A stretch of 64,000 bases of DNA, from NCBI GenBank assembly GCA_963712855.1, contig CAVQJN010000001.1, forward strand, positions 742,747 through 806,746. Reading direction: 5' to 3'. Position numbers and translations under genes: made by a program. The stretch comes from Thermoanaerobaculia bacterium (GTDB lineage Bacteria > Acidobacteriota > Thermoanaerobaculia > Multivoradales > JAGPDF01). Positions 8,024 through 40,362 of the stretch are shown one piece after another. The notes under the pieces were generated by a model, which saw only the letters and a list, made by a program, of their open reading frames with translations, searched no databases and had not been told where the DNA came from. Every line of letters starts with the position of its first letter. The stretch's first letter is position 1.

Positions 8024-8123
8024 TGGCGGAAGCGCATGGGAATCGAACCCACCTCCGCCGCCCCTACGGGCACCGGACGACGGTTTTGAAGACCGTGGGA
8101 GGCACCAGCCCCCGCGCGCTTCC
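8024..8123 (-). tRNA. selC: tRNA-Sec (selenocysteine, anticodon UCA)
   Basis: Reverse complement reads GGAAGCGC-G-GGGGGC/TGGT/GCCTCC-C-ACGGT/CTTCAAA/ACCGT-long variable arm-GTGGG/TTCGATT/CCCAT-GCGCTTCC-G-CCA. This gives an 8-bp acceptor stem, 6-bp D stem, UCA anticodon in a 7-nt loop, long extra arm and encoded CCA. It closely parallels E. coli selC (GGAAGAUCG...CUUCAAA...GGUUCGA.UCC...CUUCCGCCA). Confidence 0.8.
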
Positions 8124-8168: not shown

Positions 8169-8903
8169 TCAGGTCACCCGCGACAACATGCGCTCGGAGC
8201 CGATCACGCGGCTGTAGACGACGCCCACCCGGTACCAGTGCAGGAGAAACCCCTCGCGACCCGCCCGCAGCCACCAGGTGAGCGTTCCCGGTCGCGGCGG
8301 CGCGGCGAGAGCGGGTGAGCAGACGACGTCGAGCGCCAGCCCGCGGGCGAGCGCCCGCGCGCGGCCGATGTGGAGCGGATCGGAGACCAGGATGAGCGTC
8401 CGCAGCCCCTCCCGCCCCAGGGCCTCGCGAACGAAGAAGAGATTCTCCAGGGTGTGACGACTCCGGTCCTCGGTCCAGATCGCCTCGGCCGGAAGGCCTC
8501 GATCGATCAGCAGATCCCGGCCCGCGCTCGCCTCGCTCCGGCTCGCTGTGCCGGTCATCCCCCCCGACACGATCACCCGGGGGGCCCAACCGTCGCGCCA
8601 GAGGCTCGCCCCGTGCTCGAGACGCGCCCGATAGACCGGGCTCAGAGCATCGTCTCGCAGCTCTCTGCCGAGAATCAGCAGGGCGTCCGACCTCCGCAGC
8701 GGTTCACCGCTCGCCAGGCGCAGGATCTTTCGAGCCTGCCAGGCCACCGGCAGCCCGAGGCCAGCGACGCCGGTCGCGAAGGCGAGGAGAAGCGTGCTCA
8801 GGCCGCCCGGGCCGAGCTCCTCGAGAAAGGTCGAATTGCGACGCCGCGCGCCCGGCCCGGCGGCCTCCTTCCGTCGACGACCCGCGGCCGGCGTCCCGCT
8901 CAT
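8169..8903 (-). CDS. DUF218 (YdcF/ElyC-like) domain protein
   Basis: Core LLILGRELRDD...RVIVSGGMTG...HTLENLFFVREAL matches DUF218. Start assumed at the internal Met (MSGTPAAG). Confidence 0.55.
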   Translation of the reverse strand: MSGTPAAGRRRKEAAGPGARRRNSTFLEELGPGGLSTLLLAFATGVAGLGLPVAWQARKILRLASGEPLRRSDALLILGRELRDDALSPVYRARLEHGASLWRDGWAPRVIVSGGMTGTASRSEASAGRDLLIDRGLPAEAIWTEDRSRHTLENLFFVREALGREGLRTLILVSDPLHIGRARALARGLALDVVCSPALAAPPRPGTLTWWLRAGREGFLLHWYRVGVVYSRVIGSERMLSRVT

Positions 8904-9415
8904 GGGTGGAGCTTTCCGCCACGGTCCCGGTGGATCGAATGCGCTCGTGGCTCCCAACCGAATCGCGCGAGGTCGATCCGGCCGCCGGGCCCGAAGACGA
9001 CGCCCTCTTCCAGGAGCAAGAGCCGCTGCCGCGGCGCTCCGTCGAAGTCGCGTCGCGCGCTGATCTCACCTCGTGCGTTGACCACCCTCTGCCAAGGAAC
9101 GGACGTTCCCGCCGGCAGCGCGGCGAGCGCGTAGCCGACCTGGCGCGCCGCCCCCGGAAAACCCGCCAGGGCGGCCACCTGGCCGTAGGTGGCGACGCGG
9201 CCTCTCGGAATCGTCCGCACCACGGTCCAGATGCGACGCCAGCGCGACTCGTCGGACCCCGGCCGCCTCACCGCATCGGCTTCCGGCTTCGACTTCGGCG
9301 AGATCGATTGGACAGGAGAGGGCACGGCGGCCACCGTCGCGAGACCGGGCGATCCTGAGCCGGAGAGCCATGAACTGAGCGCCCCATCTCGAAGGCCCAC
9401 ACGGGCGCTCAGCAT
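8900..9415 (-). CDS. Alkyltransferase-like protein (ATL; MGMT-family DNA-binding domain lacking the active-site Cys)
   Basis: TIPRGRVATYGQVAALAGFPGAARQVGYALA...VPWQRVVNARGEIS: a Methyltransf_1N/DNA_binding_1 fold with PWQRV in place of the catalytic PCHRV. Start taken at Met 9415, since the upstream part of the long ORF is low-complexity. Confidence 0.6.
   Translation of the reverse strand: MLSARVGLRDGALSSWLSGSGSPGLATVAAVPSPVQSISPKSKPEADAVRRPGSDESRWRRIWTVVRTIPRGRVATYGQVAALAGFPGAARQVGYALAALPAGTSVPWQRVVNARGEISARRDFDGAPRQRLLLLEEGVVFGPGGRIDLARFGWEPRAHSIHRDRGGKLHP
9090..9255. repeat. Direct repeat partner (~165 bp) of 12795-12960, internal to the ATL gene
   Basis: Same >140-nt string in both places (…cgcgagcgcgtagccgacctggcgcgccgcccccggaaaacccgccagggcggccacctggccgtaggtggcgacgcggcctctcggaatcgtccgcaccacg…). 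Confidence 0.8.
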
Positions 9416-9624
9416 ATCGACTCCAGCGTCGAATCCCTTCACGCCGGACCCTCGCGTCGAGACGAGAGTGAAGAAGCTCGTGAGGAGGAGAAGAGAGTCA
9501 AGCCGAGGCCCGACTCCACGAGTTCTCGAAAGGGAGAGCGGAGTGGCCACCCAGAGAAATCGTGGACAGTAGACGTGCGCTCCGCTGAAACCTTTCGCGC
9601 CCGAATACGTTCTACAATGTAGAA

Positions 9625-12279
9625 ATGACGCCGATGCTAGCTCCCCCGCCCAGCCTCCCCGAACGGCTCCTGCTGGCCCTGATGCCGCCGGCCGAGCGCG
9701 ACGAAGTGCTGGCCGACCTGCGCGCCGAGCGCGCAACGCGCGCCGCACGCGACGGGGCGGGCGCGGCGCGGCGATGGATGTGGAAGCAGGTGGCGGCGTC
9801 GCTGCCGGCGCTCCTCGGGCGGAGCGTCTGGCGCGGCCGCACCGGATTCGAATCTCGAGCCAACCGCGCCCGACCGGGAGGGAACGCCTTGGAGAGCTGG
9901 ATCCTCGACTTCCGCTACACCTTGCGCCGGCTGCGCCGCCGGCCGCTCTATGCGACGCTGGCGGTGGCGACGCTGGCGCTCGGAGTCGGCGGCGCCGCCG
10001 CCATCGCCGGTCTGGTCCGCGGCGTGCTGCTCGAGCCGCTCCCCTACGCCCACGAGGAACGCCTCGGGATCTTCACCTGGGTCTACGACTGGTCGGAGAG
10101 CGAGATGCTCTACCTGCGACCCGACTTCCCGGGATTCCAGGACGTCGCCGCCTACGCGCCGCTCGACGTCACCCTCCATCGCGAGGGGTCCCCCGCCCAG
10201 CTCGTGCCGGGGATCCAGGCCTCGGCCGAGCTCTTCGACGTGCTGGGGAGCCGGCCGCTGCTCGGCCGCGGCTTCCAGAAAGGCGACGACGTTCGCGGTG
10301 CGGAACGCGTCGCGGTGCTGAGCTATGGCCTCTGGCAGCAACTCGGCGGCGACCCGGCGCTGGTCGGGCAGCGGCTGCGGCTCGGCGGCAGAGAGCGGAC
10401 CGTCATCGGCGTCATGCCGCGTGGCTTCTGGTTCCCGTCGCCCGATGTGCGCGTCTGGGTGCCGAGCCGGCTCGATCCCGACAACGGCTCAGGCGACTAC
10501 GCGCTCGTCGGCCGGTTGGCGTCCGGCGTCTCGTTCAGCGCGCTGCCCTCCTATATGAAGCGGCTCTCCGCGCGCCTCGCCGGCCGCTTCCACTATCCGG
10601 CGGACTGGGACAAGACGAAGGATCTGCGGCTGACGCCGATCCGCGACGCGCTCGTCGGACCGCTGCGCCCCGCGCTCTGGGCGACGCTGGCGGCAATGGC
10701 GATGATCCTGCTGATCGCCTGCGCCAACGTCGCCGCGCTCACCCTGGGCCAGCTCGAGGGACGCACAACCGAGCTCGCGGCACGGCTCGCTCTCGGCGCC
10801 GAGCAGCGACGGCTGGTGCAGCAACTTGTCGCCGAGGCGATCGTCCTCGGCGGCGCCGCGGCAGCGGTCGGCGCAGCGCTCGCGGCGGCCGGATTCCGGC
10901 TGCTGGTCGCCGCGCTGCCGCTCGGCGCCTGGGCCGAGCAGGCGCGCCTCGACGGCTCGGTCTTCGCCGCAGCGCTCGTCGCGGCGCTCGTCGCCGGTTT
11001 GCTCCTGGCTCTGCTCCCGACGATGTCGCTGGCACGGCGCGACCTGCGCGGCGCGCTGGCGATGACGCGTACCCGCGGGGTCGCTGGGCGGGGTGGGCGG
11101 CTCGAGAGCGGTCTCGTCGTCGCCGAGGTCGCCCTCGCCGTGCTGCTCACCGCCGGGGCGGCGCTGGTCGCGCACAGCGTCTCGAACCTCTACGCGGTCG
11201 ATCCCGGCTTCGAGACCCGCGGCCTGGCGGTGGTCGATCTGGTGCTTCCCGCTGGCAGCACGCTCGGCGAGCGGCAGCGGACGGTCCACGAGATGGTCGA
11301 CGGGCTGGCGGCGCTGCCGGGGGTGACGCGCGTCGCGGCGAGCCAGAAGCTGCCGCTGCGAGGTCCGGGATCCAGCGCCGGGATCGCGGTTGTCGGGCGC
11401 GCCGGCGACGCAGACACCACGACCTATTTCCGCTTCGTCACGCCGGGCTATTTCGAAGCGCTGCGCCTTCCGCTGGTGGCGGGGCGCACCTTCACGAGCG
11501 CCGACCGTGCCCTCGTTCCGTCCGGCGACGGGAGCGAGATTCCCGTGGTCGTCAACCAGGCGCTCGCCTCCGAGTACTTCAGGGGCGAGAGCCCCCTCGG
11601 CCGCGTCCTCACCGGCGGCATCGGCGTCCACGAGCGCATCGTCGGCGTGGTCGGCAATATCGCCGAGGCGCGGCTGTCGGATCCCCCGGTGCCGGCGCGC
11701 TACTGGCTCACCGACCAGGCACCCTTCGGGCTCGATGCCATGTCGTTCGTGCTGCGCGCCGCGCCCGGGCTCGACCCCGTCTCGCTGCTCGAGCCGGCCC
11801 GGGCGACGGTCGAACGGCTGGCGCCGGCGGCGGCGGTGCGCGAGACGACGACCATGGAAAGGGTGCTCGACCAGGCGGTCGGACCGGCCCGCCAGGTGAT
11901 GCGGCTGCTGGCCATCCTCACCGGGCTCGCGGTCCTGCTGGGCGCGGTCGGCGTCTACGGCGTCCTCGCCCACTTCGTCGCCCGCCGCCAGCGCGACTGG
12001 GCGATCCGCATGGCGCTCGGCTTCTCGCCGTCGCACGTCGTCGGCTACGTCGTGCGGCGCGGCGTCGCCCTGGTGCTCGCCGGCATCGCGATCGGTGGCG
12101 GCCTGGCGCTGGCGCTCTCGCGGCTGCTGCGCTCGCTGCTCTTCCACGTCGGCGCCGCCGATCCGGTGGCGCTCGCCGTGGCGGGAGCGACACTGCTCGT
12201 GGTCGGCATCGTCGCCGCACTCGTGCCGGCCTGGCGGGCGAGTCGCACCCACCCGGCACTATTGCTCAGGGAGGTTTAG
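9625..12279 (+). CDS. ADOP-family ABC transporter permease (MacB-like periplasmic core plus duplicated FtsX domains)
   Basis: 884 aa with the characteristic ADOP N-terminal leader, two MacB_PCD-like periplasmic regions and two four-TM FtsX-like modules (…LGFSPSHVVGYVVRRG…). Confidence 0.8.
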   Translation: MTPMLAPPPSLPERLLLALMPPAERDEVLADLRAERATRAARDGAGAARRWMWKQVAASLPALLGRSVWRGRTGFESRANRARPGGNALESWILDFRYTLRRLRRRPLYATLAVATLALGVGGAAAIAGLVRGVLLEPLPYAHEERLGIFTWVYDWSESEMLYLRPDFPGFQDVAAYAPLDVTLHREGSPAQLVPGIQASAELFDVLGSRPLLGRGFQKGDDVRGAERVAVLSYGLWQQLGGDPALVGQRLRLGGRERTVIGVMPRGFWFPSPDVRVWVPSRLDPDNGSGDYALVGRLASGVSFSALPSYMKRLSARLAGRFHYPADWDKTKDLRLTPIRDALVGPLRPALWATLAAMAMILLIACANVAALTLGQLEGRTTELAARLALGAEQRRLVQQLVAEAIVLGGAAAAVGAALAAAGFRLLVAALPLGAWAEQARLDGSVFAAALVAALVAGLLLALLPTMSLARRDLRGALAMTRTRGVAGRGGRLESGLVVAEVALAVLLTAGAALVAHSVSNLYAVDPGFETRGLAVVDLVLPAGSTLGERQRTVHEMVDGLAALPGVTRVAASQKLPLRGPGSSAGIAVVGRAGDADTTTYFRFVTPGYFEALRLPLVAGRTFTSADRALVPSGDGSEIPVVVNQALASEYFRGESPLGRVLTGGIGVHERIVGVVGNIAEARLSDPPVPARYWLTDQAPFGLDAMSFVLRAAPGLDPVSLLEPARATVERLAPAAAVRETTTMERVLDQAVGPARQVMRLLAILTGLAVLLGAVGVYGVLAHFVARRQRDWAIRMALGFSPSHVVGYVVRRGVALVLAGIAIGGGLALALSRLLRSLLFHVGAADPVALAVAGATLLVVGIVAALVPAWRASRTHPALLLREV

Positions 12280-12282
12280 GCG

Positions 12283-12609
12283 ATGACGGAAGCGGTCGGC
12301 AGCTTCGAGGAGCAGGTGATGATCGGCGTCCTGCGCACCGGCGGCGAGGCCTACGGCATGGCGGTGCGCCGCGAGCTCGAAGATGTCGGCGGGCGCGACG
12401 TCGCGATCGGCGCCGTCTACTCGACCCTCGACCGGCTGGAGGCGAAAGGACTGGTGCGCTCGTCGCGCAGCCGCGGCGCCGCCGCCCGCCGCCTCTTCGC
12501 CGTCACCCCAGCCGGCCTACGCGCCCTCGCCGAGACCCGCGCCGGCCGCGAGCGGCTCTGGGACGGCATCGACCTGGCCGCGTTCGGCTTGCGGACCCGA
12601 GCGACGTAG
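12283..12609 (+). CDS. PadR-family transcriptional regulator
   Basis: 108 aa; winged helix YGMAVRRELEDVGGRDVAIGAVYSTLDRLEAKGLV is typical of PadR. Starts 4 bp after the ADOP permease. Confidence 0.8.
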   Translation: MTEAVGSFEEQVMIGVLRTGGEAYGMAVRRELEDVGGRDVAIGAVYSTLDRLEAKGLVRSSRSRGAAARRLFAVTPAGLRALAETRAGRERLWDGIDLAAFGLRTRAT

Positions 12610-12794
12610 CTGCCGCGCCCAGCCGCCGGCGCCGAGGGGCCCCAGCGAGACGTTGGGGACGAGGTCGACGGTGAAGAGGGTGATGATGTTGGCCGAGAGA
12701 TCGCGGCGCTTTGCGCTAGAGGCCGGTTTTCCGGGGAAGGTGATCTCTATTTGCTTGCAAGGAGCAAAGCGGCCCGCTAGTTGGCGGGCCGTAA

Positions 12795-12960
12795 ACGACC
12801 GCCCCCGCCGGCAGCACCGCGAGCGCGTAGCCGACCTGGCGCGCCGCCCCCGGAAAACCCGCCAGGGCGGCCACCTGGCCGTAGGTGGCGACGCGGCCTC
12901 TCGGAATCGTCCGCACCACGCTCCAAATGACGCGCCAGCGCGAAGCTTCCGATCCAGGCG
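12795..12960 (-). pseudogene. Duplicated 5' fragment of the ATL gene (remnant)
   Basis: About 165 bp nearly identical to 9090-9255. It encodes ...RVIWSVVRTIPRGRVATYGQVAALAGFPGAARQVGYALA and then diverges, with no intact ORF context. Confidence 0.55.
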
Positions 12961-13117
12961 CGCGGAATGCTCCCTCTCGCGGACTCACGTTGGCGCTCAG
13001 ACTATCCGTTCCCGCTCCGGAACAGGCGCACTCACGACTTGCGTGGCGCGCCGGGTCGGCGGAAAATGACCGACGGTTTCGCCCCACGACTCGAACCCTT
13101 TCGAAGAGGATGAAATC

Positions 13118-15568
13118 GTGACTGCTCGCCTCCGGTCGGCCGTGCATTTTGCATCTGTTCGCCATGTTGTCGCACTCTTGGTTGCTGCAGCCTTCTGCGT
13201 GGTGCTCACTCCGCGGCCGCTCCGCGGACAGGATGGCCTGCCGCCCGGAACTCCGCCTGACATCCAGAAGATCATCGAGAAGGCGAAGAGCGGCCAAGTG
13301 CCGACGCCGCAAGAGACCCAGCGGCTCATGGAGTGGGAGAAGCAGCTGGCGCAGAAGATGGGGGACCCGTCGCGCTCGGCCCCTCCGGGCAAAGTCGACA
13401 CCCAGTATGCGCCCGCCTCGATCGCTCGCGACGGCATCCCCTGCCGCCTGGAAGCGACGATCCACTACACGTTGCAGGCACCCGACGCCGACACGGTGAC
13501 GGGCCAGGCGAGCGCGTGGGCCGACGGGATGATGTACGCGACGATCGATGGCACCGACGACTACGTCAATTCCTCGGCCGATCCCTCCTCGCACGTTTCG
13601 ATCATCCGGATCGAGCCCCTCGCCAAGAACGGGAAGGCCGTGCTCGGCGGCGGCGGCAGCTACACGATCGAATCGGCCCACGACCGCATCTCGGCGACCG
13701 TGAAGCGGGCGGTCGGGGGAACGGTGCTGGTCAGCAGCGGGCACGGCGACGCGCTCATGGACGTGACAGGCCCGGAGATGTTCGGCGTCGAGGCCGAGGG
13801 CACGGAGTGCGGTTCCCAGGGTTGTCAGCCTTACAAGCACGACACCAACGGTGACTTTCTGGACGTCGCCTTCCCCTTCGCGATGGAGAAGCACCTCGAG
13901 GACGAGAACCAGACGGGCATCGGCAAGCCGATGCCTCAGCCCCCGCTCGCCATCTCGCTCGACCGCCTGAAGGCCGCCATCCAGGCCGGCGGATCGCAGT
14001 CGGTGAGCGGTTCGGAGAACTTCTCCTGGAAGACCGAGTACGAGACGGTCAACGGCAACAGCACCCTGAAGATCACGCTACGGCCCTCGCCCCTCCGGCT
14101 TCTGATCGACGAGCCCCTCGAGTATCCGGAGTGGTCGCCGGTGCCGTCATCCGACGACCCGGCGATCACGCAGCTCTTCGGCAAGGGATCCCGCCTGACC
14201 TTCCACGTCCGGCTGGTCACGAAAGACGGCAAGGAATCGGTGGTCGACCAGCCGATCGACTTCTACCTCGACGAGGTCAGCCACCACAAGGGCATCTGCT
14301 CCAACTATCCGAAGAGGAACGCGGACGACAAGCCGGATCTCCGGTTCACGTCGCCGGACGACGGGGTCTTCAACCAGGCGATCGAGATCGACCCGAAGGA
14401 TCCGAACCACGCCTACCTCAAGGCGCCCGCGACCGAGGCCGACGTCACCATCGAGGCGACCGACACCGGCGCCTACGGCAAGTTCCGCGCCGAGGCGAAG
14501 ACCCTTGGCCTCCTGAGCCTGGACGAGCGCACGGGCGAGAACTTCGTGCGTATCCCGATGGACGACGACAAGAACCACATCGCCGACGGATGGGCGAAGC
14601 GGCGCGGGGTCATGAACCTGCCGCCGACCTGGGACGAGGACGCGGTGCCCGCCGAGATGCCGCGCAAGGGCGACAGCCTGACGCTCTACGAGGAGTATCG
14701 CGGATTCGTCGTCGCGGATCCCCTGACTCAAGAGCCGCACTGGACGCGCCTGGAGACCCAGCGGCGCAAGACGTTCGTCTACCCGAAGAACGGCCACGAG
14801 GACTGGATTCGGGAGGGAGCGCGTCTGTTCGAGACGGTGACCGGCATCCGGGTCTACTTCGTGCCCGGAGACGACTACGTGAAGCCCGATCCGGCGCTCG
14901 ACAACAACCTGAACTGGATCAATTTCAACTCCGACCTCGACGACGGCATCGACTTCGGCCCCAAGGTCGACATCATCCCGATCGTCAACACGCCCGGCTA
15001 CATCTCCGACGATCCCAAGAATCCCGGGGTGCACGTCAACGGCCGCACGATGGCCGCGGGCGACAAGTACGGCAAGGAAGTTCCCGACGGTCCGTGGCAG
15101 CTCGACGAGATCCAGATCTTCCCGCAGAAGATCACCGCCAGCATGAACGACGAGGAGAAGCTCTACAGCGACCTGGCGGCGGGACACGGGACGGCGCCGC
15201 ACACGAAGGTGAACCTGGGCTATTACGGCGCCACCTTCCACGATGTCGCGACCGACATCCAGAAGGACTTCGCCGACATGGTGCACGATCTCTACGTCTT
15301 CAGCACGATGCACGAGATGGGTCACGCGCTGGGCGCGCATCACCACGACGAGGACCACCCGGAGATCGGCCCGCTCACCTGCCCGATGACCTACTGGTCC
15401 GGAAGGCGCGCGAACCTGCCCTTCTTCCTCGTCCTGTTCCATCCCAGCCGGACGGCGTGGTCCCTTCCCCCCGCCCCCGGCTCGACCGACAGCACTCCCG
15501 GTCCCGGCAGCGCCGCTCCCTGGAAGTTCTGCGCCGCGAGCTGGCAGCAGATGAAGCTGAAGCCGTAG
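13118..15568 (+). CDS. Secreted metzincin-like zinc metalloprotease (HExxHxxGxxH)
   Basis: 816 aa with N-terminal signal peptide (VVALLVAAAFCVVLTPRPLRGQ) and a C-terminal region carrying HEMGHALGAHHHDEDHPEIGPLTCPMTYW, which fits the metzincin HExxHxxGxxH motif. The preceding ~600 aa have no recognised fold. Confidence 0.7.
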   Translation: MTARLRSAVHFASVRHVVALLVAAAFCVVLTPRPLRGQDGLPPGTPPDIQKIIEKAKSGQVPTPQETQRLMEWEKQLAQKMGDPSRSAPPGKVDTQYAPASIARDGIPCRLEATIHYTLQAPDADTVTGQASAWADGMMYATIDGTDDYVNSSADPSSHVSIIRIEPLAKNGKAVLGGGGSYTIESAHDRISATVKRAVGGTVLVSSGHGDALMDVTGPEMFGVEAEGTECGSQGCQPYKHDTNGDFLDVAFPFAMEKHLEDENQTGIGKPMPQPPLAISLDRLKAAIQAGGSQSVSGSENFSWKTEYETVNGNSTLKITLRPSPLRLLIDEPLEYPEWSPVPSSDDPAITQLFGKGSRLTFHVRLVTKDGKESVVDQPIDFYLDEVSHHKGICSNYPKRNADDKPDLRFTSPDDGVFNQAIEIDPKDPNHAYLKAPATEADVTIEATDTGAYGKFRAEAKTLGLLSLDERTGENFVRIPMDDDKNHIADGWAKRRGVMNLPPTWDEDAVPAEMPRKGDSLTLYEEYRGFVVADPLTQEPHWTRLETQRRKTFVYPKNGHEDWIREGARLFETVTGIRVYFVPGDDYVKPDPALDNNLNWINFNSDLDDGIDFGPKVDIIPIVNTPGYISDDPKNPGVHVNGRTMAAGDKYGKEVPDGPWQLDEIQIFPQKITASMNDEEKLYSDLAAGHGTAPHTKVNLGYYGATFHDVATDIQKDFADMVHDLYVFSTMHEMGHALGAHHHDEDHPEIGPLTCPMTYWSGRRANLPFFLVLFHPSRTAWSLPPAPGSTDSTPGPGSAAPWKFCAASWQQMKLKP

Positions 15569-15647: not shown

Positions 15648-15953
15648 TCCGCTAGAGGCGAAAGGGTGCCAGGCGAATAGCTAGCTGGTCCCGGAGACAA
15701 ACCCCTCTTCGACCAGCTTCGCGGACGGCTTCGACGCCGGCGACGCGTGCAACTGGGAGACCCGGGTGCCCAATACGCCCTGCGCTAGCGAAAGGGTGCC
15801 AGGCGAATAGCAGGCGAAAGGGTGCCAGGCGAATAGCTAGCTGGTCCCGGAGACAAACCCCTCTTCGACCAACTTCGCGGACGGCTTCGACGCCGGCGAC
15901 GCGTGCAACTGGGAGACCCGGGTGCCCAATACGCCCGGAGTGAAAGGGTGCCA
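15648..15953. repeat. REP-like tandem repeat array (24-bp GCGAAAGGGTGCCAGGCGAATAGC motif x4, separated by two ~100-bp identical units)
   Basis: Motif at 15648, 15779, 15805 and 15930. The ~100-bp unit (tagctggtcccggagacaaac...gggtgcccaatacgccc) occurs at 15671-15770 and 15827-15926. The motif equals one terminal inverted repeat of the Y1-transposase element. Confidence 0.8.
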
Positions 15954-16140
15954 GGCGAATAGCTAGCCAAGCCCTTTGGGCATGGACGAATTCTCTCCTC
16001 TTGGGGGACCCACGTTGATCTCGTCCGTCTCGCGCAACGAGGCACATCGATCTCTAGGTACGGCCAAGGCGCCGAGAGACTCCTGACGGTCTCGAGAGCT
16101 CAACCTCGAAAGATCACACCCGCGCCCTTCCTGGGCCGCG
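15940..16140. repeat. 3'-end remnant (~200 bp) of a Y1-transposase element; second copy at 20980-21180
   Basis: Near-identical to 20980-21180, which is the 3' terminal region of the intact element copy 1. It is cut at ...ctgggccgcga by the IS3 insertion. Confidence 0.75.
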
Positions 16141-16205: not shown

Positions 16206-16472
16206 ATGCGGAAGAGTCGGTACTCCGAGGAGCAGATCATTCGGGTGCTCCAGGAGGTCGAATCGGGCAAGACGGTTCGTGAGGTTTGCCGGGAGCATGG
16301 GATCGCGACCGGGACCTACTACGCCTGGAAGTCGAAGTTCGGCGGCATGGACGTCAACGAGGCGCGACGGCTCAAAGAGCTCGAGCTCGAGAATCGGCGT
16401 CTGAAGGCGGCGGTGGCGGACCTGACGCTCCGGGAGCAGGCACTGAAGGACGTGCTGTCAAGAAAATGGTGA
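16206..16472 (+). CDS. IS3-family transposase OrfA (HTH)
   Basis: 88 aa MRKSRYSEEQIIRVLQEVESGKTVREVCREHGI..YYAWKSKFGGMDVNEARRLKELE, typical IS3 OrfA with a leucine zipper. Confidence 0.85.
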   Translation: MRKSRYSEEQIIRVLQEVESGKTVREVCREHGIATGTYYAWKSKFGGMDVNEARRLKELELENRRLKAAVADLTLREQALKDVLSRKW

Positions 16473-17353
16473 CGCCCGCGGCCCGGCGTGCGGCGGTCCA
16501 TCTTCTCCGGGAGCGACACCAGCTGAGCGAGCGGAGTGCGTGTCGACTGATGAGCTACAGCCGCTCGTCGTACCGCCGCAAGAGTCTTCGCGCCGAGGCG
16601 GACAAGCCCCTGAGAGATCGCCTTCTGGCGCTTGCGTCGGAACGACCTCGCTACGGCTACCGCCGGTTGCACGTTTTCCTCGAGCGGGAGGGCTGGAGCA
16701 TCAACCGCAAGCGGGTCTACCGCGTGTATCGGGAGCTGGGCTTGGCCGTGCGGCGAAAGAAGCGCAAGCGCGTGGCTCAGGCGAATCGACAGCCCCGGGT
16801 CGTGCCGATCGCTCGTGACATTCAATGGTCGCTCGACTTCATGCGCGACACGCTGGCCAACGGCCGAGTCTTCCGCACGCTGAATGTCGTCGACGACGCC
16901 ACTCGGGAGTGCTTGGCGATCGAAGTCGACACCTCGCTCTCCGGTTATCGAGTCGGTCGCGTGCTGGACGCCGTAGCCCGCGAGCGAGGTCGCTACCCGA
17001 GCCGGATCGTCTTGGACAATGGCCCCGAGTGCACGAGCAAGGCGCTCGACCAGTGGGCCTACGATCACGGTGTCACGCTCGCCTTCATCCGCCCCGGGAA
17101 ACCGGTCGAGAACTGCTTCGTCGAGAGCTTCAACGGGAAGTTCCGCGACGAATGCCTCAACCTGCATTGGTTCCTCAGCCTGGCCGATGCGCGGCGCCGC
17201 ATCGAGGCTTGGCGCTTGGATTTCAACTTCGTCCGACCACACAGTAGCTTCGACGGCCGGCCCCCCGCCGTGGCGGCGCGCGAGGCGTGGCTCCACCCGG
17301 CTACGCCGGCTTCCGCCACGCCTCGACCAGGGGCTAGGTACCAGGGAAAATGA
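16466..17353 (+). CDS. IS3-family transposase OrfB (DDE integrase core), expressed by -1 frameshift from orfA
   Basis: rve domain: ...WSLDFMRDTL...RTLNVVDDATRECLAIEVD...DNGPECTSKAL...PGKPVENCFVESFNGKFRDECLN (D, D, E triad). Frame is -1 relative to orfA; the putative slippery region AAGAAAATGG lies near 16455-16470. Confidence 0.8.
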   Translation: MVTPAARRAAVHLLRERHQLSERSACRLMSYSRSSYRRKSLRAEADKPLRDRLLALASERPRYGYRRLHVFLEREGWSINRKRVYRVYRELGLAVRRKKRKRVAQANRQPRVVPIARDIQWSLDFMRDTLANGRVFRTLNVVDDATRECLAIEVDTSLSGYRVGRVLDAVARERGRYPSRIVLDNGPECTSKALDQWAYDHGVTLAFIRPGKPVENCFVESFNGKFRDECLNLHWFLSLADARRRIEAWRLDFNFVRPHSSFDGRPPAVAAREAWLHPATPASATPRPGARYQGK

Positions 17354-17400
17354 ATCGCGAGTGTCCAGTTGGTGGTGGTGTCAACCTGGGGAGCAGGTCA

Positions 17401-17470
17401 GGCCCACGACATTCTCAATAGACGGAATCCAACGCCCAGATTCCTCGCTATTCGGGTGGCACCTTTGTCG
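17401..17470. repeat. 5'-end remnant of the Y1-transposase element (tnp start plus terminal IR), abutting the IS3
   Basis: ggcccacgacattctcaatagacggaatccaacgcccagattcctcgctattcgggtggcacctttgtc is a diverged copy of 22140-22210 and 23070-23140 (tnp start codon region plus terminal repeat). Confidence 0.65.
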
Positions 17471-17694
17471 GGAGGTTACGCCATCCTCAAAATTCCACGG
17501 GATTCGGGACGGAACCTCCTCCCGAAGACACGCAGCTGCTTTCTGAGAGCAGAAGGAATGGAGAACATCATCAATCTATGTCACGAAGACATCCGAACGA
17601 GCAGGACGAGCACGGTCTTGGGTATTGCGGGTGTGCTCTCCATCTGCTCCGATCCATTGCTTGGAGTCCTCCGAACTCATACGTTGGTTAAGTC

Positions 17695-20551: not shown

Positions 20552-20743
20552 CGGTACGTCGTGTCGCGTGGGTTAGTTCGAATGCAGGGCGGCTCATAGG
20601 CATCGTCTCGACTGGAGAATACTCTTCTCTCGCGCTTCTGCAAGCTACTGACAGGTTCTGTCAGTGGGTGCCTCTTCGAGCATTCCGCTGAGCGATTTGT
20701 AGCGCAACAGGTTTCGAAAGAAGAGGTGGCCTGTGACCTGCTA

Positions 20744-20800
20744 CCCAGGTTGACACCACCACCAACTGGACACTCGCGATTCATTTTCCATGAGTCCCGG
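20744..20800 (-). mobile_element. Solo inverted copy of the IS3 terminal repeat (remnant)
   Basis: TGACCTGCTACCCAGGTTGACACCACCACCAACTGGACACTCGCGATTCATTTTCC is the reverse complement of IS3 right end 17345-17400 with one mismatch in the first 13 nt. Similarity decays after ~55 bp. Confidence 0.7.
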
Positions 20801-20974
20801 CCTCGGGTCGAGGTGCCGGAAGAGTGCCAGACGAATAGCGAATAGCAGTGGCTGCCTAGAGGGCGTGTGCCGGGCACCATCTGCAAACCATTACTGACCT
20901 TGGGCTTCTATGGAGGAGGAGCACGCCCATGCCTCTGTTCATGAGGCGAAGCAACCAAATTTGGTTCAGAGTAG

Positions 20975-22210
20975 CGAAAGGGTGCCAGGCGAATAGCTAG
21001 CCAAGCCCTTTCGGTATGGACGCATTCTCTCCTTTTGGGGGACCCACGTTGATCTCGTCCGTCTCGCGCAACGAGGCACATCGATCTCTAGGTACGGCCA
21101 AGGCGCCGAGAGACTCCTGACGGTCTCGAGAGCTCAACCTCGAAAGATCACACCCGCGCCCTTGCTGGGCCGCGACCCGCCTTGCTGCTGGCTCCGGACC
21201 TCTGTAGGCGAGCGAGTCTCTCTAGCTACGTCGCGGCCTGAACCCCGCGAAACGGCAAGGCCGGCGGGAAGCACCCTTGGGGAAATCCCACGTCGAGCTG
21301 ACCCGCGCGGAATCGCTCGGAGGAACGGCGGAAAGCCGCCAGGAAGGTCGCGTAGGCGTCGCGGACCTGCCTCCGAACCTGCCGCGAGTAGGCGTGGATC
21401 AGCGGAGCGGGCCCCTTCTTGATCCGGTTCGGCTCGAAGTGAGGATCCTGGCGCAGTACGAATGAACGGCCGGCAGCCGATCGCCCCGTCTCAGCCGCCT
21501 TCCGGGCGGTCTCCTGCTCGATGCCCTGGATCATCTCTGCGATTCGGCTCCGATACTGCTCGTCGTCGAGCCCGGCCCAACAGGGAATCGGGACGAGCTG
21601 GAGAGATTCCTCCTCGACCAGATCCCGCGGTTGGAGAGCGATCCCTTTGCGACTCGCCGTGTACTCGAGCGTATGGTTGATCCAACGACCGCGGACCGAC
21701 GATCCCGACAGGAGAAAGGGAGCCGCGTGGGCACCCGGCCATTCCTTGGGCGAGCGAACCAGGCCTTCCTTGGATCCGTGACCGAGGAGGTAATGCAAGC
21801 GTGCCACCTGGCTCGCTTCGTCGTCCGAGACGAGGATCGCCTGATACCTGCGTCCCCAGAACTTCTCGCGCCAGCGAATGAGCCGGCCCGCCTCACGGGC
21901 CAGATTCGAGTTGAGATAGCCCATGAAGGCGGCGAGGCGCTGTGCGTCGGGGACAGTGAGCAGAAGGTGGAAGTGATTGGAGAGAAAGGCGAAGGCATGA
22001 ACCCGCACCGGATAGAGGCGGGCTGCCCGTGCGAGAACGCCGAGCGTCAGGTCTCGGAGAATGGGGCTCGGCCGCAAGAGCAGACGCCCCTGAACCGTGC
22101 GACAGGTGACCTCGACGAGCGAGCCCGGCGGAACGAAGCGGATCCTTCGGCCCATGACACGCTCAACAGACGGAATCCAAGGCCCAGATTCCTCGCTAGT
22201 CGGGTGGCAC
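20975..22210 (-). mobile_element. Y1/HUH (IS200-like, COG1943/RAYT-like) transposase element, copy 1, with imperfect ~25-bp terminal inverted repeats
   Basis: Left terminus GCGAAAGGGTGCCAGGCGAATAGCTAGC versus right terminus (reverse complement) GAGAAAGGTGCCACCCGACTAGCG. It contains a single tnp gene, and the same termini recur as solo REP-like motifs. Confidence 0.65.
21226..22155 (-). CDS. Y1 HUH transposase (IS200/IS605-like TnpA domain with ~180-aa C-terminal extension)
   Basis: HUH motif SNHFHLLL, FMGYLNSNL, and catalytic-Tyr region KFWGRRYQAILV in the N-terminal ~130 aa. 309 aa in total. Confidence 0.7.
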   Translation of the reverse strand: MGRRIRFVPPGSLVEVTCRTVQGRLLLRPSPILRDLTLGVLARAARLYPVRVHAFAFLSNHFHLLLTVPDAQRLAAFMGYLNSNLAREAGRLIRWREKFWGRRYQAILVSDDEASQVARLHYLLGHGSKEGLVRSPKEWPGAHAAPFLLSGSSVRGRWINHTLEYTASRKGIALQPRDLVEEESLQLVPIPCWAGLDDEQYRSRIAEMIQGIEQETARKAAETGRSAAGRSFVLRQDPHFEPNRIKKGPAPLIHAYSRQVRRQVRDAYATFLAAFRRSSERFRAGQLDVGFPQGCFPPALPFRGVQAAT

Positions 22211-23066
22211 CTTTCTCTCCGAACCGCTCGGAGGAACGGCGGAAGGCCGCCAGGAAGGTCGCGTAGGCGTCGCGGAGCTGCCTCCGGACCTCCCGTGAGT
22301 GGGCGTGGATCAGCGGAGCCGGTCCCTTCTTGATCCGGTTCGGCTCGAAGTGAGGATCCTGGCGCAGTACGAATGAACGGCCGGCAACCGATCGCTTCGT
22401 CTCAGCCGCCTTGCGTGCGGCCTCCTGCTCGATTCCCTGGATCATCTCTGCGATTCGGCTCCGATACTGCTCGTCGTCGAGCCCGGCCCAACAGGGAATC
22501 GGGACGAGCTGGAGAGATTCCTCCTCGACCAGATCCCGCGGTTGGAGAGCGATCCCTTTGCGACTCGCCGTGTACTCGAGCGTATGGTTGATCCAACGAC
22601 CGCGGACCGACGATCCCGACAGGAGAAAGGGAGCCGCGTGGGCACCCGGCCATTCCTTGGGCGAGCGAACCAGGCCTTCCTTGGATCCGTGACCGAGGAG
22701 GTAATGCAAGCGTGCCACCTGGCTCGCTTCGTCGTCCGAGACGAGGATCGCCTGATACCTGCGTCCCCAGAACTTCTCGCGCCAGCGAATGAGCCGGCCC
22801 GCCTCACGGGCCAGGTTCGAGTTGAGATAGCCCATGAAGGCGGCGAGGCGCTGTGCGTCGGGGACGGTGAGCAGAAGGTGGAAGTGATTGGAGAGAAAGG
22901 CGAAGGCATGAACCCGCACCGGATAGAGGCGGGCTGCCCGTGCGAGAACGCCGAGCGTCAGGTCTCGGAGAATGGGGCTCGGCCGCAAGAGCAGACGCCC
23001 CTGAACCGTGCGACAGGTGACCTCGACGAGCGAGCCCGGCGGAACGAAGCGGATCCTTCGGCCCAT
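22047..23066 (-). CDS. Y1 HUH transposase, copy 2 (3' end replaced where copy 1 abuts; altered C-terminus)
   Basis: Protein identical to copy 1 over ~280 aa (one or two substitutions). Homology ends at 22211, where the 5' terminus of copy 1 begins, and the ORF reads on into copy 1 sequence. Confidence 0.6.
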   Translation of the reverse strand: MGRRIRFVPPGSLVEVTCRTVQGRLLLRPSPILRDLTLGVLARAARLYPVRVHAFAFLSNHFHLLLTVPDAQRLAAFMGYLNSNLAREAGRLIRWREKFWGRRYQAILVSDDEASQVARLHYLLGHGSKEGLVRSPKEWPGAHAAPFLLSGSSVRGRWINHTLEYTASRKGIALQPRDLVEEESLQLVPIPCWAGLDDEQYRSRIAEMIQGIEQEAARKAAETKRSVAGRSFVLRQDPHFEPNRIKKGPAPLIHAHSREVRRQLRDAYATFLAAFRRSSERFGEKGATRLARNLGLGFRLLSVSWAEGSASFRRARSSRSPVARFRGVCSCGRAPFSET

Positions 23067-23141
23067 GACACGCTCAACAGACGGAATCCAAGGCCCAGAT
23101 TCCTCGCTAGTCGGGTGGCACCTTTCTCCGGTGGTGGTCAA
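22211..23141 (-). mobile_element. Y1 transposase element copy 2 (3'-truncated, tandem to copy 1)
   Basis: Contains the same 5' terminus (22... ggtggcacctttctc at 23127-23141) and tnp gene. Its 3' ~90 bp and terminal repeat are missing. Confidence 0.6.
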
Positions 23142-24462
23142 CCAGCCGATCGACTTCTACCTCGACGAGGTCAGCCACCACAAGGGCATCTGCTCCAACT
23201 ACCCGAAGGGGAACGCGGACGACAAGCCGGATCTCCGGTTCACGTCGCCGGACGAAGGGGTCTTCAACCAGGCGATCGAGATCGACCCGAAAGATCCGAA
23301 CCACGCCTACCTCAAGGCGCCCGCGACCGAGGCCGACGTCACCATCGAGGCGACCGACACCGGCGCCTACGGCAAGTTCCGCGCCGAGGCGAAGACCCTG
23401 GGCCTCCTGAGCCTGGACGAGCGCACGGGCGAGAACTTCGTGCGCATCCCGATGGACGACGACAAGAATCACATCGCCGACGGATGGGCCAAGCGGCGCG
23501 GGGTCATGAACCTGCCGCCGACCTGGGACGAGGACGCGGCGCCCGCCGAGATGCCGCACAAGGGCGACAGCCTGACGCTCTACGAGGAATATCGCGGATT
23601 CGTCGTCGAGGATCCCCTGTCACAGCAAGCGCATTGGACGCGATTGGAAACCAAGCGTCGGAAGACCTTCGTTTATCCCAAGAACGGCCACGAGGACTGG
23701 ATCCGCGAAGGAGCGCGCCTGTTCGAGACGGTGACCGGCGTCCGCGTCTATTTCGTCCCGGGAGACGACTACGTGAAGCCCGACCCGGCGCTCGACAACG
23801 GGTTGAACTGGATCAACTTCAACTCGGACCTCAACGACGGCATCGACTTCGGTCCGAAAGTCGACATCATCCCCATCGTGAACACGCCCGGCTACGTCTC
23901 GGACGACCCGAAGCACCCGAAAGTCCACGTCTTCGGCCGCACCATGGCCGCGGGCGACAAGTACGGCGTGCAGGTCCCGGACGGCCCCTGGCAGCTCGAC
24001 GAGATCCAGATCTTTCCGCAGAAGATCACCGCCAGCATGAACGACGAGGAGAAGCTCTACAGCGATCTGGCGGCGGGACACGGGACGGCGCCGCACACCA
24101 AGGTGAACCTCGGTTACTACGGCGCCACCTTCCAGGACGTCGCGACCGACATCCAAAAGAACTTCGGCGCCATGGTGCACCAGCTCTATGTCTTCAGCAC
24201 GATGCACGAGATGGGACACGCCCTGGGCGCGCGCCACCACGACGAGGACCACCCGGAGATCGGCCCGCTCACCTGCCCGATGACCTACTGGTCGGGCCGC
24301 CGCGCCAACCTGCCTTTCTTCCTCGGGCGCTTCGACCCCGACAAGACCGCCTGGACCTTTCCCGCCTCCCCCGACGGATCCGACGACACCCCCGGCCCCG
24401 GCAACGCGTCCCCCTGGTCCTACTGCCAGACGAGCTGGAGCCAGATGAAGCTCAAGCCGTGA
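23141..24462 (+). pseudogene. 3' fragment of a paralogous metzincin-like protease gene, 5'-truncated by the Y1-element insertion
   Basis: Roughly 440 aa that are ~85-90% identical to residues ~375-816 of the 13118-15568 protein, including HEMGHALGARHHDEDHPEIGPLTCPMTYW. Homology starts exactly at the element boundary at 23141. Confidence 0.7.
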
Positions 24463-37200: not shown

Positions 37201-38381
37201 GCGCTGGCGCAATCGGAACGCAGGGCTGCAACGATGCTGTGGATCTCCAGGTCACTGGGCCCTCGGTGAGCTCCACCTCTCCAGAACCCGGTTCAGATCT
37301 TGTCGTCTACATGACCGCCTCGAACCTCGGCACAGATCCCAGCAATGCAACTACGCTGGTTTACTACCGCTCATCGGATGCCGTGATCTCCTCCGCCGAT
37401 ACGGAGATCGGTCAGGACTCGATCTCCAGCTTGGCCGGTGGGGCGAGCTCTCCACAGAATCTGCAGACAACTGCCCCGAGCAGCGACGGGACGTACTGGT
37501 TTGGAGCCTGCATCCTGCCAACTGGCGATGAGTCCAATGTATCCAACAATTGTTCGACCGGAGTTGAGGTTGATGTGGTGTCCCACCCCGACCTCGTCGT
37601 CATTGACCCGTCAGTCGACAACGCGGCCCCAGCACAGGGACAGCAGATCACTATCCACGCGACCGCCAAGAATTCAGGAATCGCCGCATCAGCTGCGACA
37701 AACCTCACTTACTACCTCTCCCCGGACCCGACAATCACTTCTGGCGACACGTCGCTCGGTCAGAAATCCGTCCCAGCGCTGTCGCCAAATGGCACCTATC
37801 CGGACAGCCTTCAGACTACTGCGCCGCCCGCCACAGGCAACTATTGGCTTGGCGCATGCGTTCAGTCTGTCAGTGGTGAGACCAATGTCTCCAACAACTG
37901 TTCGACCGGCGTGGAGATTCAAGTTGGGCCCGCTTGCACAGACGATGAATTCGAGCTCCTCGGGAGCGACAACTCTGATGACACCTGCTACGGCGCCAGC
38001 GTCGTGCCAGGAGTCGCGCAGCAACATCTTCACTGCGACGAAGACTGGGTTCGCTTCGTGCCAGATGCAGGAGCTACCTACCGCATCGAGACTTCATCCC
38101 TAACTGGTGGAGCCGACACAACACTCGCGCTACACCAAGACTGTGGTCAGCAGCAGTTGGCGTTCAACGACAACTTCACAGGCCTCGCATCACGAATCGA
38201 CTGGACCGCTACAGGTACCGCGCCGATCGATATCAGAATCCAAGAAAGGGCCGGTACTTACGCAACTGGGGAGGGCTACACCATCTCCGTGTCTTGCATC
38301 GCCGGATGCGCGCCCGTCCCAATCTTCGCCGACGGCTTCGAGGACGGCACTCTTTGCGCATGGTCGAACGGAGGATGCTAG
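31229..38381 (+). CDS. Giant secreted multidomain protein: alpha/beta-hydrolase (lipase-like) + Ig-like domains + 4x [BNR/Asp-box beta-propeller + PKD] + 2x CARDB + PPC-like C-terminal domain; single frameshift near 35192
   Basis: Signal peptide; ILIHGL...VAHSLGGLVAR (GxSxG serine hydrolase). Repeated YG(D/N)G(K/Q)WVAVG...TSPDGVTWT (SxDxGxTW Asp-boxes) blocks, each followed by PKD (WDFGDGQ...THTYGQGGVYSVSLAATNAFG). CARDB-like segments at 37230-37900. C-terminus ...IFADGFEDGTLCAWSNGGC. ORFs 31229-35605 and 34905-38381 differ by a 1-nt insertion (GGGGAAGCT versus GGGGAGCT in the other copies). Confidence 0.75.
34221..37180 (+). repeat. Near-perfect tandem repeat, unit 1080/1081 bp, ~2.7 copies (preceded by a more diverged copy from ~33150)
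   Basis: The same >100-nt strings recur at 34264, 35345 and 36425 (offsets 1081 and 1080). Each unit encodes one beta-propeller plus PKD module. Confidence 0.9.
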
Positions 38382-40338: not shown

Positions 40339-40362
40339 ACTCTGCTCGAGGGGCCTTCGCAG

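Follow-up and report, generated by a model that had tools for sequence, protein, structure and literature searches.

The stretch of DNA analysed here, referred to as the window, comprises 64,000 nucleotides from a Thermoanaerobaculia bacterium. On its minus strand, a DUF218 gene (8169–8903, PF02698) is translationally coupled to an intact alkyltransferase-like (ATL) gene (8900–9271, PF01035 profile positions 4–81 of 81), whose stop TGA at 8902–8900 overlaps the DUF218 start as ATGA, and this is the native, conserved context. Upstream of ATL, a spacer (9272–9586) and an upstream signal (9587–9624, plus strand) lead to two genes on the plus strand, one for a permease of the ADOP family of duplicated permeases (9625–12279) and, 4 nt downstream, one for a PadR-family regulator (12283–12609). 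Then a truncated ATL frame (12716–12988) occurs on the minus strand, and accessory DNA (12960–51398) extends to a tRNA-Ala(GGC) gene detected by ARAGORN (51399–51474, minus strand), which in relatives is directly upstream of ATL. Here ‘copy A’ refers to the intact ATL gene and ‘copy B’ to the truncated one. The spacer upstream of copy A is unlike both the spacer upstream of copy B (12960–13117) and the tRNA-ATL spacers of relatives.

ATL proteins carry another residue, usually Trp, at the position of the active-site Cys in PCHRV. Copy A has VPWQRVV, so PWQRV stands in the place of PCHRV with Trp for the active-site Cys, and this Trp is nearly invariant among 13 aligned full-length sequences. 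The invariant columns GRVATYGQ...ARQVGYA, which correspond to the ATL helix-turn-helix with its arginine finger and tyrosine, are present in both copies; the roles of single residues are taken from the literature. ATL proteins consist of the C-terminal DNA-binding domain of AGT alone, without the N-terminal AGT domain, and their biochemical property is to bind O6-alkylguanine and recruit nucleotide excision repair (PMC10779285). Likewise, PF01035 is the sole domain of copy A when its 123 aa are counted from GTG at 9271. The source annotation instead has ATG at 9415 and 171 aa. ATL homologues, the best of which is 79–84% identical, are 97–150 aa long, mostly about 117–130, and start 8–12 codons before SRW. 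The start of copy A is likely GTG at 9271, and the annotated start is probably over-extended.

Copy B also matches PF01035 on the minus strand, at positions 5–49 of 81. From a possible GTG at 12988, its frame runs through ~66 ATL-like codons, then ~24 unrelated codons and a stop; by Pfam PF01035 and tblastn it corresponds to the first ~57 codons of ATL and diverges after them. An N-terminal motif, R-x-PGS-D/E-x-SRW, is common to copies A and B and absent from all other top homologues. Because copy B ends before the PWQRV pocket, it would be non-functional, an orphaned 5′ gene fragment that should be flagged as a pseudogene in the annotation.

The repeat search of the window reported a single direct-repeat family. 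Its two members, 9098–9263 in copy A and 12794–12959 in copy B, both on the minus strand, are 166 nt long, lie 3,696 bp apart and match at 149 of 166 positions (90% identity). One end of the repeat lies at about the start codon of ATL, and the other is a single illegitimate breakpoint. A run of 102 nt, 9123–9224 in copy A and 12819–12920 in copy B, is identical (102/102), and all 17 mismatches fall outside this core, leaving ~70% identity at the 5′ end and ~76% at the 3′ end. When the mismatches were permuted, an identical run of at least 102 nt was obtained in 0 of 200,000 trials. Outside the core, 8 synonymous and 9 non-synonymous differences were counted in 24 codons, while none of the 34 codons inside it differs.

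An earlier note, made from the letters of this DNA, had described a 5′ ATL fragment repeated in direct orientation around the ADOP–PadR pair, with copy B being only a 5′ fragment that then diverges, and both descriptions are borne out by the repeat search, the PF01035 matches and tblastn. It placed copy B correctly and copy A at 9090–9255, about 8 nt off. Its ‘nearly perfect’ repeat holds for the identical core but not for the ends, which are just 70–76% identical.

Purifying selection fails to explain the identity of the core, because the same segment of ATL is only 71–76% identical in nucleotides across species. A later gene conversion could have produced the 102-nt core, which has the look of such a tract. 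On the other hand, the repeat ends have diverged between copies A and B about as much as ATL genes of different genera, so copy B is no recent simple copy of A. Differences at the third codon position amount to 11/23 between the copies, and this excess of third-position and synonymous differences suggests that part of the divergence arose in a functional gene.

The DNA that follows the copy-B breakpoint provides a second clue. Directly after the breakpoint lies a segment of 79 nt (H2, 12714–12792, minus strand), which is homologous to a segment beginning 17 nt downstream of tRNA-Ala (H1, 51303–51381, minus strand), 38.5 kb away. Ungapped, the two match at 58 of 79 positions (73%, BLAST E = 9e-7); the runner-up to H1 in the window reaches 43/79, against a background of 21 ± 3.9. 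In H2 a hairpin at 12771–12790 precedes CTTTGCTCCTT, together resembling a terminator on the minus strand, and H1 contains one at 51360–51379 followed by TTTTG. This hairpin motif occurs in the window at these two sites only, against 0.02 expected, and the fold predicted for H2 is -22 kcal/mol. As H2 is homologous to the sequence downstream of tRNA-Ala, one illegitimate junction has fused the middle of ATL to tRNA-proximal sequence. The alignments place this single junction, which joins ATL codon ~57 to H2, at ~12793/12794 with 0–2 nt ambiguity and at most 0–2 nt of microhomology.

Pattern scans of metagenome and genome contigs found no H elsewhere, and a scan for tRNA-Ala followed by H likewise gave zero. 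H may be either a native terminator of the tRNA or the end of an island. A hairpin after tRNA-Ala is absent in four of the six relatives, and a loosely similar one occurs in contigs L010 and L011. Viral sequences gave generic GC hairpins only, with no extended homology; Rfam matched no RNA family in the spacers or in H2; and a consensus scan for sigma-70 promoters and terminators returned nothing useful in this high-GC DNA. Separately, an IS200/IS605-type end was considered for H2, as TTAC precedes its hairpin and the window has Y1 transposase ORFs at 21–23 kb. It was rejected, since H1 has TGAC instead of TTAC, the homology runs 60 nt past the hairpin, the Y1 units are >8 kb away with different repeats of their own, and a passenger of 3.7 kb or 38 kb does not fit the family.

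The only genes between 9264 and 12793 are those for ADOP and PadR. The permease scores 667.9 bits against the TIGR03434 cut-off of 622.3 and has the duplicated architecture, with two MacB_PCD (PF12704) and two FtsX (PF02687) stretches; its best homologue is 69% identical. The regulator is assigned to its family by PF03551 only, scoring 25.9 bits against the cut-off of 101.8 for the acidobacterial PadR family TIGR03433. The upstream signal consists of GAAAC, 16 nt, CGTT and an overlapping perfect palindrome TTCTACAATGTAGAA (9610–9624) directly before the ADOP ATG. The same motif and palindrome precede ADOP in three other contigs (L006, L007 and L008), where ADOP is also followed by PadR in unrelated contexts, and this conserved element, with its ECF-like motif, is a putative signal of the ADOP–PadR unit. 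The pair has 73% GC and a GC3 of 0.90–0.93, resembling core genes, and no ATL or tRNA-Ala lies beside ADOP at its four closest homologues.

In the 3.7-kb unit that extends from one repeat copy to the other, no integrase, transposase or terminal inverted repeats were found, its ends carry no convincing inverted repeats, and neither the IS3 nor the Y1 transposase repeats found elsewhere in the window resemble it. The unit is not bounded in the way of a transposon or an IS element. No second ADOP, PadR or integrase remnant was found in the window, and the literature search on ADOP/PadR mobility returned nothing relevant. The pair should not be labelled a mobile element on present evidence.

The surroundings were compared with related contigs. 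In six of them the core order is HflX, tRNA-Ala(GGC), ATL, DUF218 (a peptidase in two of the six), tRNA-SeC and MoeA, and the tRNA-Ala to ATL gap is 26–136 nt in four of the six. The core order is kept on both sides in the window, L002–L005 and L010–L012, and ATL followed by DUF218 is kept in L002–L005 and L012. From these gene orders, the ancestral order is seen to be tRNA-Ala directly followed by ATL. What lies in the interval varies. It may be empty or contain an acid phosphatase or an integrase island, and in the window it spans 42 kb (9.3 to 51.4 kb), which is inserted by comparison with the six relatives. Thus the variable DNA is directly 3′ of a conserved tRNA gene and between conserved core genes, as at a hotspot.

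The site takes up islands in relatives. In L002 and L003, an integrase island is present at tRNA-Ala with the integrase gene immediately upstream of ATL, and a 47-nt copy of the tRNA-Ala 3′ end adjoins the integrase as the attachment site, while L004 is the empty site relative to this island. Both features are absent from the window, in which no tRNA-Ala 3′ fragment was found and the L002 integrase had no tblastn match. Between copy B and tRNA-Ala, the window has a DISARM defence system (DrmA, DrmB, DrmE and a C5 methylase), Vsr and a NERD helicase. The same stretch contains PKD giant proteins and a WYL regulator, together with an IS3 transposase, Y1 transposase units in tandem and an orphan gene of 816 aa that is metzincin-like. 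The 816-aa neighbour had no match in genome contigs and seven distant homologues only. The GC content of this DNA ranges from 56% to 70%, with patches of 56–60% against 73% for ADOP–PadR, and the DNA is missing at the same site in L004, L005, L010, L011 and L012. Several other partial duplications within 12 kb mark a recombination-active region.

The repeat is an ordinary recombination scar in a tRNA-linked hotspot. We consider, with a probability of roughly 55%, that a second, diverged ATL gene left its 5′ end behind as copy B, where a 42-kb pile-up of foreign DNA, wedged between tRNA-Ala(GGC) and the ATL-DUF218 operon, has its inner edge. Two lineages, or two older copies, would have had different inserts downstream of tRNA-Ala and H, one parental form holding ADOP–PadR and the other the DISARM island. 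A homologous crossover on the HflX/tRNA-Ala side, together with an illegitimate join on the ATL side, would have brought them together. Because such an event is homologous on one side and illegitimate on the other, the incoming DNA would have been added rather than swapped, leaving the ATL 5′ stump. Homology-facilitated illegitimate recombination of this kind is well established as a source of orphaned gene ends in arrays (PMC3240628; PMC5361080). Later, gene conversion with the intact ATL would have homogenised the central 102 nt, as suggested by the identity pattern of this one genome. Neither of the two parental arrangements was seen among the relatives examined.

The recombination origin proposed by the earlier note holds, but its emphasis on a two-gene module bracketed by direct repeats finds no support: the unit has no mobility genes, and the repeat has one illegitimate breakpoint and belongs to a larger hotspot. 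The note had further suggested comparing relatives for presence or absence of the pair at this site. The 3.7-kb unit and ATL fragments are absent at the six related ATL loci, and these show the whole of 9.3–51.4 kb in the window to be an insertion between tRNA-Ala and ATL, so the repeat is one scar within a much larger hotspot. The note left two histories open, insertion into a second ATL copy and duplication with deletion. A single junction ambiguous by 0–2 nt would also be produced by a circle junction or a tandem duplication, and readings of both kinds are weighed as rivals.

The first of these, its main reading, is that ADOP–PadR was the incoming DNA, and we regard it as unlikely. A circle or tandem unit of H2, PadR, ADOP, the spacer and the ATL 5′ part, formed where ADOP–PadR lay between tRNA-Ala and ATL, would have entered the ATL of an island-bearing genome by a single homologous crossover. 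This would give the observed order and the same novel junction of the ATL 5′ part with H2, and the site of the crossover would be the most conserved stretch of ATL, in which the core is found. The recurrence of the pair with the same promoter and palindrome in the unrelated contexts of L006–L008 also means that the pair relocates over evolution. However, a Campbell-type crossover of diverged DNA would not on its own leave 102 nt of identity, so conversion is still needed. Furthermore, it is the island that looks foreign in composition and ADOP–PadR that looks core-like, and none of the four closest ADOP homologues has an adjoining ATL or tRNA-Ala.

Somewhat more doubtful is a tandem duplication in situ from H to mid-ATL, including ADOP–PadR, in which the 38-kb island later took the place of the upstream copy's interior and the two copies diverged slowly. 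It would create exactly one novel junction, from the ATL 5′ part to H, and a single step would double both H and the 5′ end of ATL, in keeping with the similar divergence of H1/H2 (73%) and the ATL ends (70–76%) and with a neighbourhood full of segmental duplications. However, neither the surroundings of H1 nor the DNA upstream of copy B preserves any remnant of another ADOP, PadR or upstream spacer, so two further precise breakpoints would be required. A divergence of ~25–30% also implies that a useless stump persisted for very long, and the third-position excess speaks for divergence partly in a functional gene.

It is highly improbable that the repeats are attL and attR of a site-specific integrative element that targets the ATL 5′ end, brings a replacement for it and carries ADOP–PadR as cargo. 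An identical core with less similar arms is superficially att-like, and the L002/L003 integrase gene is immediately upstream of ATL. However, that integrase uses the 47-nt tRNA-Ala 3′ end rather than ATL, and the L002 island has no second ATL fragment at its far end. No integrase or its remnant lies inside or beside the unit or anywhere in the window, the six related ATL loci lack the unit, and H2, by its homology to H1, links the junction with DNA close to tRNA-Ala.

Finally, an assembly chimera, in which two strains or loci with a common 102-nt core were misjoined, has a comparably slight chance, even though the assembly is metagenome-derived and short-read graphs branch at such a core. In an independent assembly, Logan contigs of ERR11571143, L001 is 100% identical to 11821–12848, confirming the 12794–12848 side of copy B, and L009 is 100% identical to 9152–8033. 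Each ends exactly 30 nt inside the identical core, which is k-1 for a k-mer size that we take to be 31. A genuine repeat breaks a de Bruijn graph in just this way, so the repeat is no obvious assembly artefact, and the two junctions that these contigs carry give it read-level support. This support covers the junctions of unique flank to core on the 3′ side of both cores; for the 5′-side junctions, exact-protein look-ups of ADOP and the 816-aa protein found no record. In addition, the source contig of 1.67 Mb would be hard to obtain from short reads and suggests long reads, which would span 166 nt; synteny is coherent on both flanks; and the truncated ATL is fused to H2 and PadR in reads whatever the rest.

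Under the preferred reading of an orphaned ATL 5′ end, several consequences can be predicted from the sequence. RecA-dependent deletion of 3,696 bp could plausibly use the 102-nt core as its substrate, as the earlier note had expected of the direct repeats, and the predicted product would have one intact, in-frame hybrid ATL. A transcript from the stump would end at the H2 hairpin, and the intact ATL-DUF218 operon would now share its upstream region with the ADOP promoter. ADOP permease genes are notoriously multiplied and scattered in Acidobacteriota. We conceived that ADOP–PadR could act as a recombination cassette, leaving as a 3,696-bp circle via RecA and re-entering by ATL or H homology. 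Although this is very unlikely, it would, if true, be a transposase-free contributor to that multiplication and scattering.

The repeat and its history open no long-standing question. Rather, the stump and the 79-nt tRNA-proximal segment would record DNA being added, not swapped, at a hotspot, a worked example from a poorly sampled Acidobacteriota lineage, and the sharp 102-nt block of identity points to a pseudogene fragment that has undergone ectopic gene conversion.

Four known systems can be compared. First, a permease above the TIGR03434 cut-off has a PadR-family gene as its partner, as in the known ADOP–PadR pairs of Acidobacteriota and Gemmatimonadota, but here ADOP comes first, PadR is below the TIGR03433 cut-off, and a palindrome and an ECF-like motif are upstream of ADOP. 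Second, the site directly downstream of tRNA-Ala(GGC) is that of tRNA-linked islands with a tyrosine integrase and a duplicated tRNA 3′ end, although in the window the ATL stump and the 79-nt H are the only boundary repeats, and integrase and tRNA 3′ repeat are absent. Third, a sharp block of 100% identity within 70–76% sequence resembles ectopic gene conversion between gene and pseudogene, in the concerted evolution of dispersed repeats, with a tract of ~100 nt here and with one genome as its source. Fourth, orphan 3′ ends of Rhs/CDI and the T6SS effector-immunity arrays of Vibrio cholerae (PMC5361080, PMC3240628), which arise by homology-facilitated illegitimate recombination or sequential displacement, differ in that here a housekeeping DNA-repair-type gene has left its 5′ end instead of a toxin its 3′ end, that the stump has no apparent adaptive role, that its central tract is homogenised and that neither parental state is observed. 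The likeness to these arrays would be that DNA is added beside a conserved anchor gene, with no replacement of the resident DNA, by an event with one homologous side and one illegitimate junction, and that the anchor gene persists in a second, truncated copy forming a direct repeat.

A repeat search of 7-15 kb returned a single long direct repeat of 166 nt, at 9098-9263 and 12794-12959, with an offset of 3,696 bp and 90% identity. Together with a base-by-base comparison, it bears out the earlier note's claim that a fragment of the alkyltransferase-like (ATL) gene is repeated on both sides of the ADOP permease and PadR genes. The coordinates in that note were right for the far copy (copy B) and about 8 nt off for the one in the ATL gene (copy A). 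By the same comparison, a core of 102 nt is identical without interruption (9123-9224 = 12819-12920). The gene-5′ arm beside it (~40 nt) has ~70% identity and the gene-3′ arm (~29 nt) ~76%; beyond these arms the similarity ends.

Each copy is a minus-strand match to Pfam PF01035. Copy A spans the complete domain (profile positions 4-81 of 81), copy B 5-49 only; tblastn found no further ATL-like sequence in the window. Copy A has the AGT C-terminal domain only, and PWQRV replaces the PCHRV of alkyltransferases. As the lone domain with an altered PCHRV defines the family (PMC10779285), copy A is, on its sequence, an alkyltransferase-like protein. Its database protein has 171 aa from ATG 9415 (annotated span 8900-9415). 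Because ATL homologues are 97-150 aa long, mostly ~117-130, and start 8-12 codons ahead of SRW, GTG 9271 (123 aa) is the likelier start; the extra 48 annotated residues derive from a lineage-specific spacer. The ATL stop and the DUF218 start overlap by 4 nt (ATGA), identically in a relative (L005), and the two genes therefore form an operon. Copy B follows ATL until LPAG and then diverges, as the earlier note had described for 12795-12960. It lacks the binding pocket, reaches its stop at 12716 after ~24 unrelated codons, and is a pseudogene fragment. Two family-rare residues in it, V for consensus R (1/120) and V for consensus A (2/116), fit decay.

Identity within the repeat is mosaic. When its 17 mismatches were shuffled, a run of at least 102 was obtained in 0 of 200,000 trials. 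Purifying selection does not account for the perfect core, because the copy A core is only 71-76% identical to the orthologues in two relatives (L002 and L005). Recent exchange, that is, gene conversion, would explain it, and the repeat appears to carry a clear signature of this kind. Of the 24 codons outside the core, 17 differ (8 synonymous, 9 non-synonymous), with third positions making up 11 of the 23 individual differences. The divergence is as large as that between genera, and part of it seems to have built up while selection was acting. The N-terminal motif R-x-PGS-D/E-x-SRW is common to both copies and absent from other top homologues; the copies therefore come from closely related lineages or an old duplication.

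The closest ATL homologues have 74-84% protein identity, and six contigs of the nearest ones were examined for gene order. The window and all six share a response regulator/histidine kinase pair, CarboxypepD_reg, ComF-like, redoxin, HflX, tRNA-Ala(GGC) and ATL. After ATL the conserved order is DUF218, tRNA-SeC, MoeA (reverse), PatA_N, Zn-ribbon and RsgA, with peptidase M28 in the DUF218 position in L010 and L011. The tRNA-SeC, at 8024-8123 between DUF218 and MoeA in the window, keeps its position in L002, L003, L005 and L010-L012. ATL lies 26-136 nt from the upstream tRNA-Ala in L012, L005 and L004. One acid-phosphatase gene intervenes in L010 and L011, and in L002 and L003 a tyrosine integrase is the neighbour of ATL, from which a 47-nt copy of the tRNA-Ala 3′ end separates it. 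The sample that gave L003 also gave L004, in which this site is empty, and the two sites are a natural attB/attR pair. Thus metagenome 3300015263 holds the site both empty (L004 686-918) and occupied (L003 632-2058); L002 (8439-9865), from another sample, has the same integrase-island occupancy and 47-nt repeat. As its content differs among relatives, the tRNA-Ala-ATL interval is an integration hotspot.

In the window, tRNA-Ala is at 51399-51474, followed by HflX (51540-52721); therefore ~42 kb (9272-51398) has been inserted between this tRNA and ATL. GC within the insert varies from 56% to 74%, and a search of the whole window found neither an integrase nor a tRNA-Ala 3′ repeat. A class-2-like DISARM cluster (38658-50421) adjoins the tRNA, with a C5 methylase (38658-39917), DrmB (40363-42189), DrmA (42135-45419; PADLOC 698 bits) and DrmE (47170-50421) as its components; Vsr (39910-40338) and a NERD/UvrD-like helicase (45416-47182) lie there as well. 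The insert also holds a WYL regulator, an AAA ATPase, ADOP-PadR and copy B. Several more partial duplications occur within the 12 kb that follow the repeat, which shows how readily they arise in this region. A rare 816-aa metzincin-like gene (HEMGHALGAHH motif, no Pfam match, only 7 distant homologues) has its 3′ half (14239-15566) duplicated at 23133-24460 with 89.5% identity, as ORF 23008-24462. Directly after this gene is a 156-nt tandem repeat (15656-15963, 95.5% identical), and the 203-nt segment 15939-16141 recurs 5 kb off at 20973-21175 (97%). Short repeats akin to 17310-17476, beside an IS3 transposase (16286-17353), recur at 20734-20822, 22149-22217 and 23060-23135. Two tandem 911-nt units (21310-23128, 98% identical) each have an IS200-like Y1 transposase domain. 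Farther along the insert, two overlapping giant PKD/CARDB ORFs (31229-38381) contain ~1,085-nt tandem repeats (33143-37180, 76-92% identical), and a frameshift or assembly collapse may lie between them.

The segment directly after the copy-B breakpoint (H2, 12714-12792) is homologous to one beginning 17 nt downstream of tRNA-Ala (H1, 51303-51381). They match ungapped at 58 of 79 positions (BLAST E = 9e-7), against 43/79 for the next best in the window and a background of 21 ± 3.9. The homology is bounded on both sides, and the breakpoint is ambiguous by 0-2 nt at most. Both segments have predicted strong hairpins on the minus strand, then T-rich tracts; the GGCCCGCC...GCGGGCC hairpin is confined to these two sites, against 0.02 expected. 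Thus the window has two copies of the sequence after tRNA-Ala, the second fused to mid-ATL. Pattern scans of public genome and metagenome contig collections gave no match to either segment; viral matches had the hairpin alone in common, and L010 and L011 have a loosely similar hairpin after tRNA-Ala. We infer that the H2 hairpin would halt transcripts from upstream of copy B before antisense entry into PadR.

The earlier note had raised the possibility of an assembly duplication. In a Logan assembly of run ERR11571143, independent of the source, exact-protein look-up retrieved two contigs 100% identical to window 11821-12848 and 9152-8033. Each terminates exactly 30 nt into the core, which is k-1 at k=31, presumably the Logan k-mer size; such ends are the behaviour of a true repeat in a de Bruijn graph. 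The reads therefore contain both PadR-H2-diverged copy-B 3′ end-core and DUF218-ATL 3′ part-core, backing two of the repeat junctions. Long-read support for the source contig is inferred from its 1.67 Mb.

Between the copies lie the ADOP permease (9625-12279; TIGR03434 667.9 bits, cut-off 622.3) and the PadR-family gene (12283-12609). Each of the four closest ADOP homologues (63-69% identical) is followed by PadR; their surroundings are unrelated, and ATL or tRNA-Ala is near none of them. Four units were compared at the DNA level (window 9587-9624, L006 3320-3375, L007 1100-1158, L008 280-336). All four have, directly before the ADOP start, an ECF-sigma-like promoter motif (GxAAC, 16-17 nt, CGTT) that overlaps the perfect palindrome TTCTACAATGTAGAA; these are probably a promoter plus PadR operator. 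The shared motifs make the unit a self-contained operon, conserved from ~9587. The window and L008 leave no space for a ribosome-binding site before ADOP. The spacer at 9272-9586 shows no relationship to the copy-B upstream spacer or to those of the relatives. The unit contains neither a recombinase or transposase gene nor terminal inverted repeats, and its composition is core-gene-like (GC 73%, GC3 0.90-0.93).

Every viable history needs exactly one illegitimate junction, from mid-ATL to the H start, plus a conversion event. The history we favour starts from two related lineages whose inserts after tRNA-Ala and H differed, ADOP-PadR in the first and the DISARM island in the second, and has them undergo one-sided homologous recombination. 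The island, together with an ATL 5′ stump, would thereby have come to lie ahead of H2, PadR, ADOP and ATL. A close rival is the mirror image, in line with the insertion into a second ATL copy suggested in the earlier note, with ADOP-PadR entering as a circle via a crossover in ATL. That note is partly supported: the repeat and a recombination origin stand, but the emphasis on a module bracketed by its own repeats does not. The other close rival is a tandem duplication in situ, after which the interior of the upstream copy was replaced. Site-specific att repeats are disfavoured, as the relatives' integrase uses the tRNA, the window has none, and the H2 homology indicates tRNA-proximal DNA.

For RecA recombination in E. 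coli, the minimal efficient processing segment is shorter than these 102 nt of perfect identity. Because the 3,696-bp offset is a multiple of three, a core crossover is predicted to remove ADOP-PadR; what remains would be an intact hybrid ATL that bears the copy-B N-terminus, the reciprocal product being a 3,696-bp circle with a truncated ATL. The preferred one-sided recombination between lineages would be a case of homology-facilitated illegitimate recombination (definition in PMC3240628), a process that PMC5361080 invokes for orphan gene ends. Overall, the repeat is a recombination scar, of a well-known type, at a tRNA-linked hotspot.
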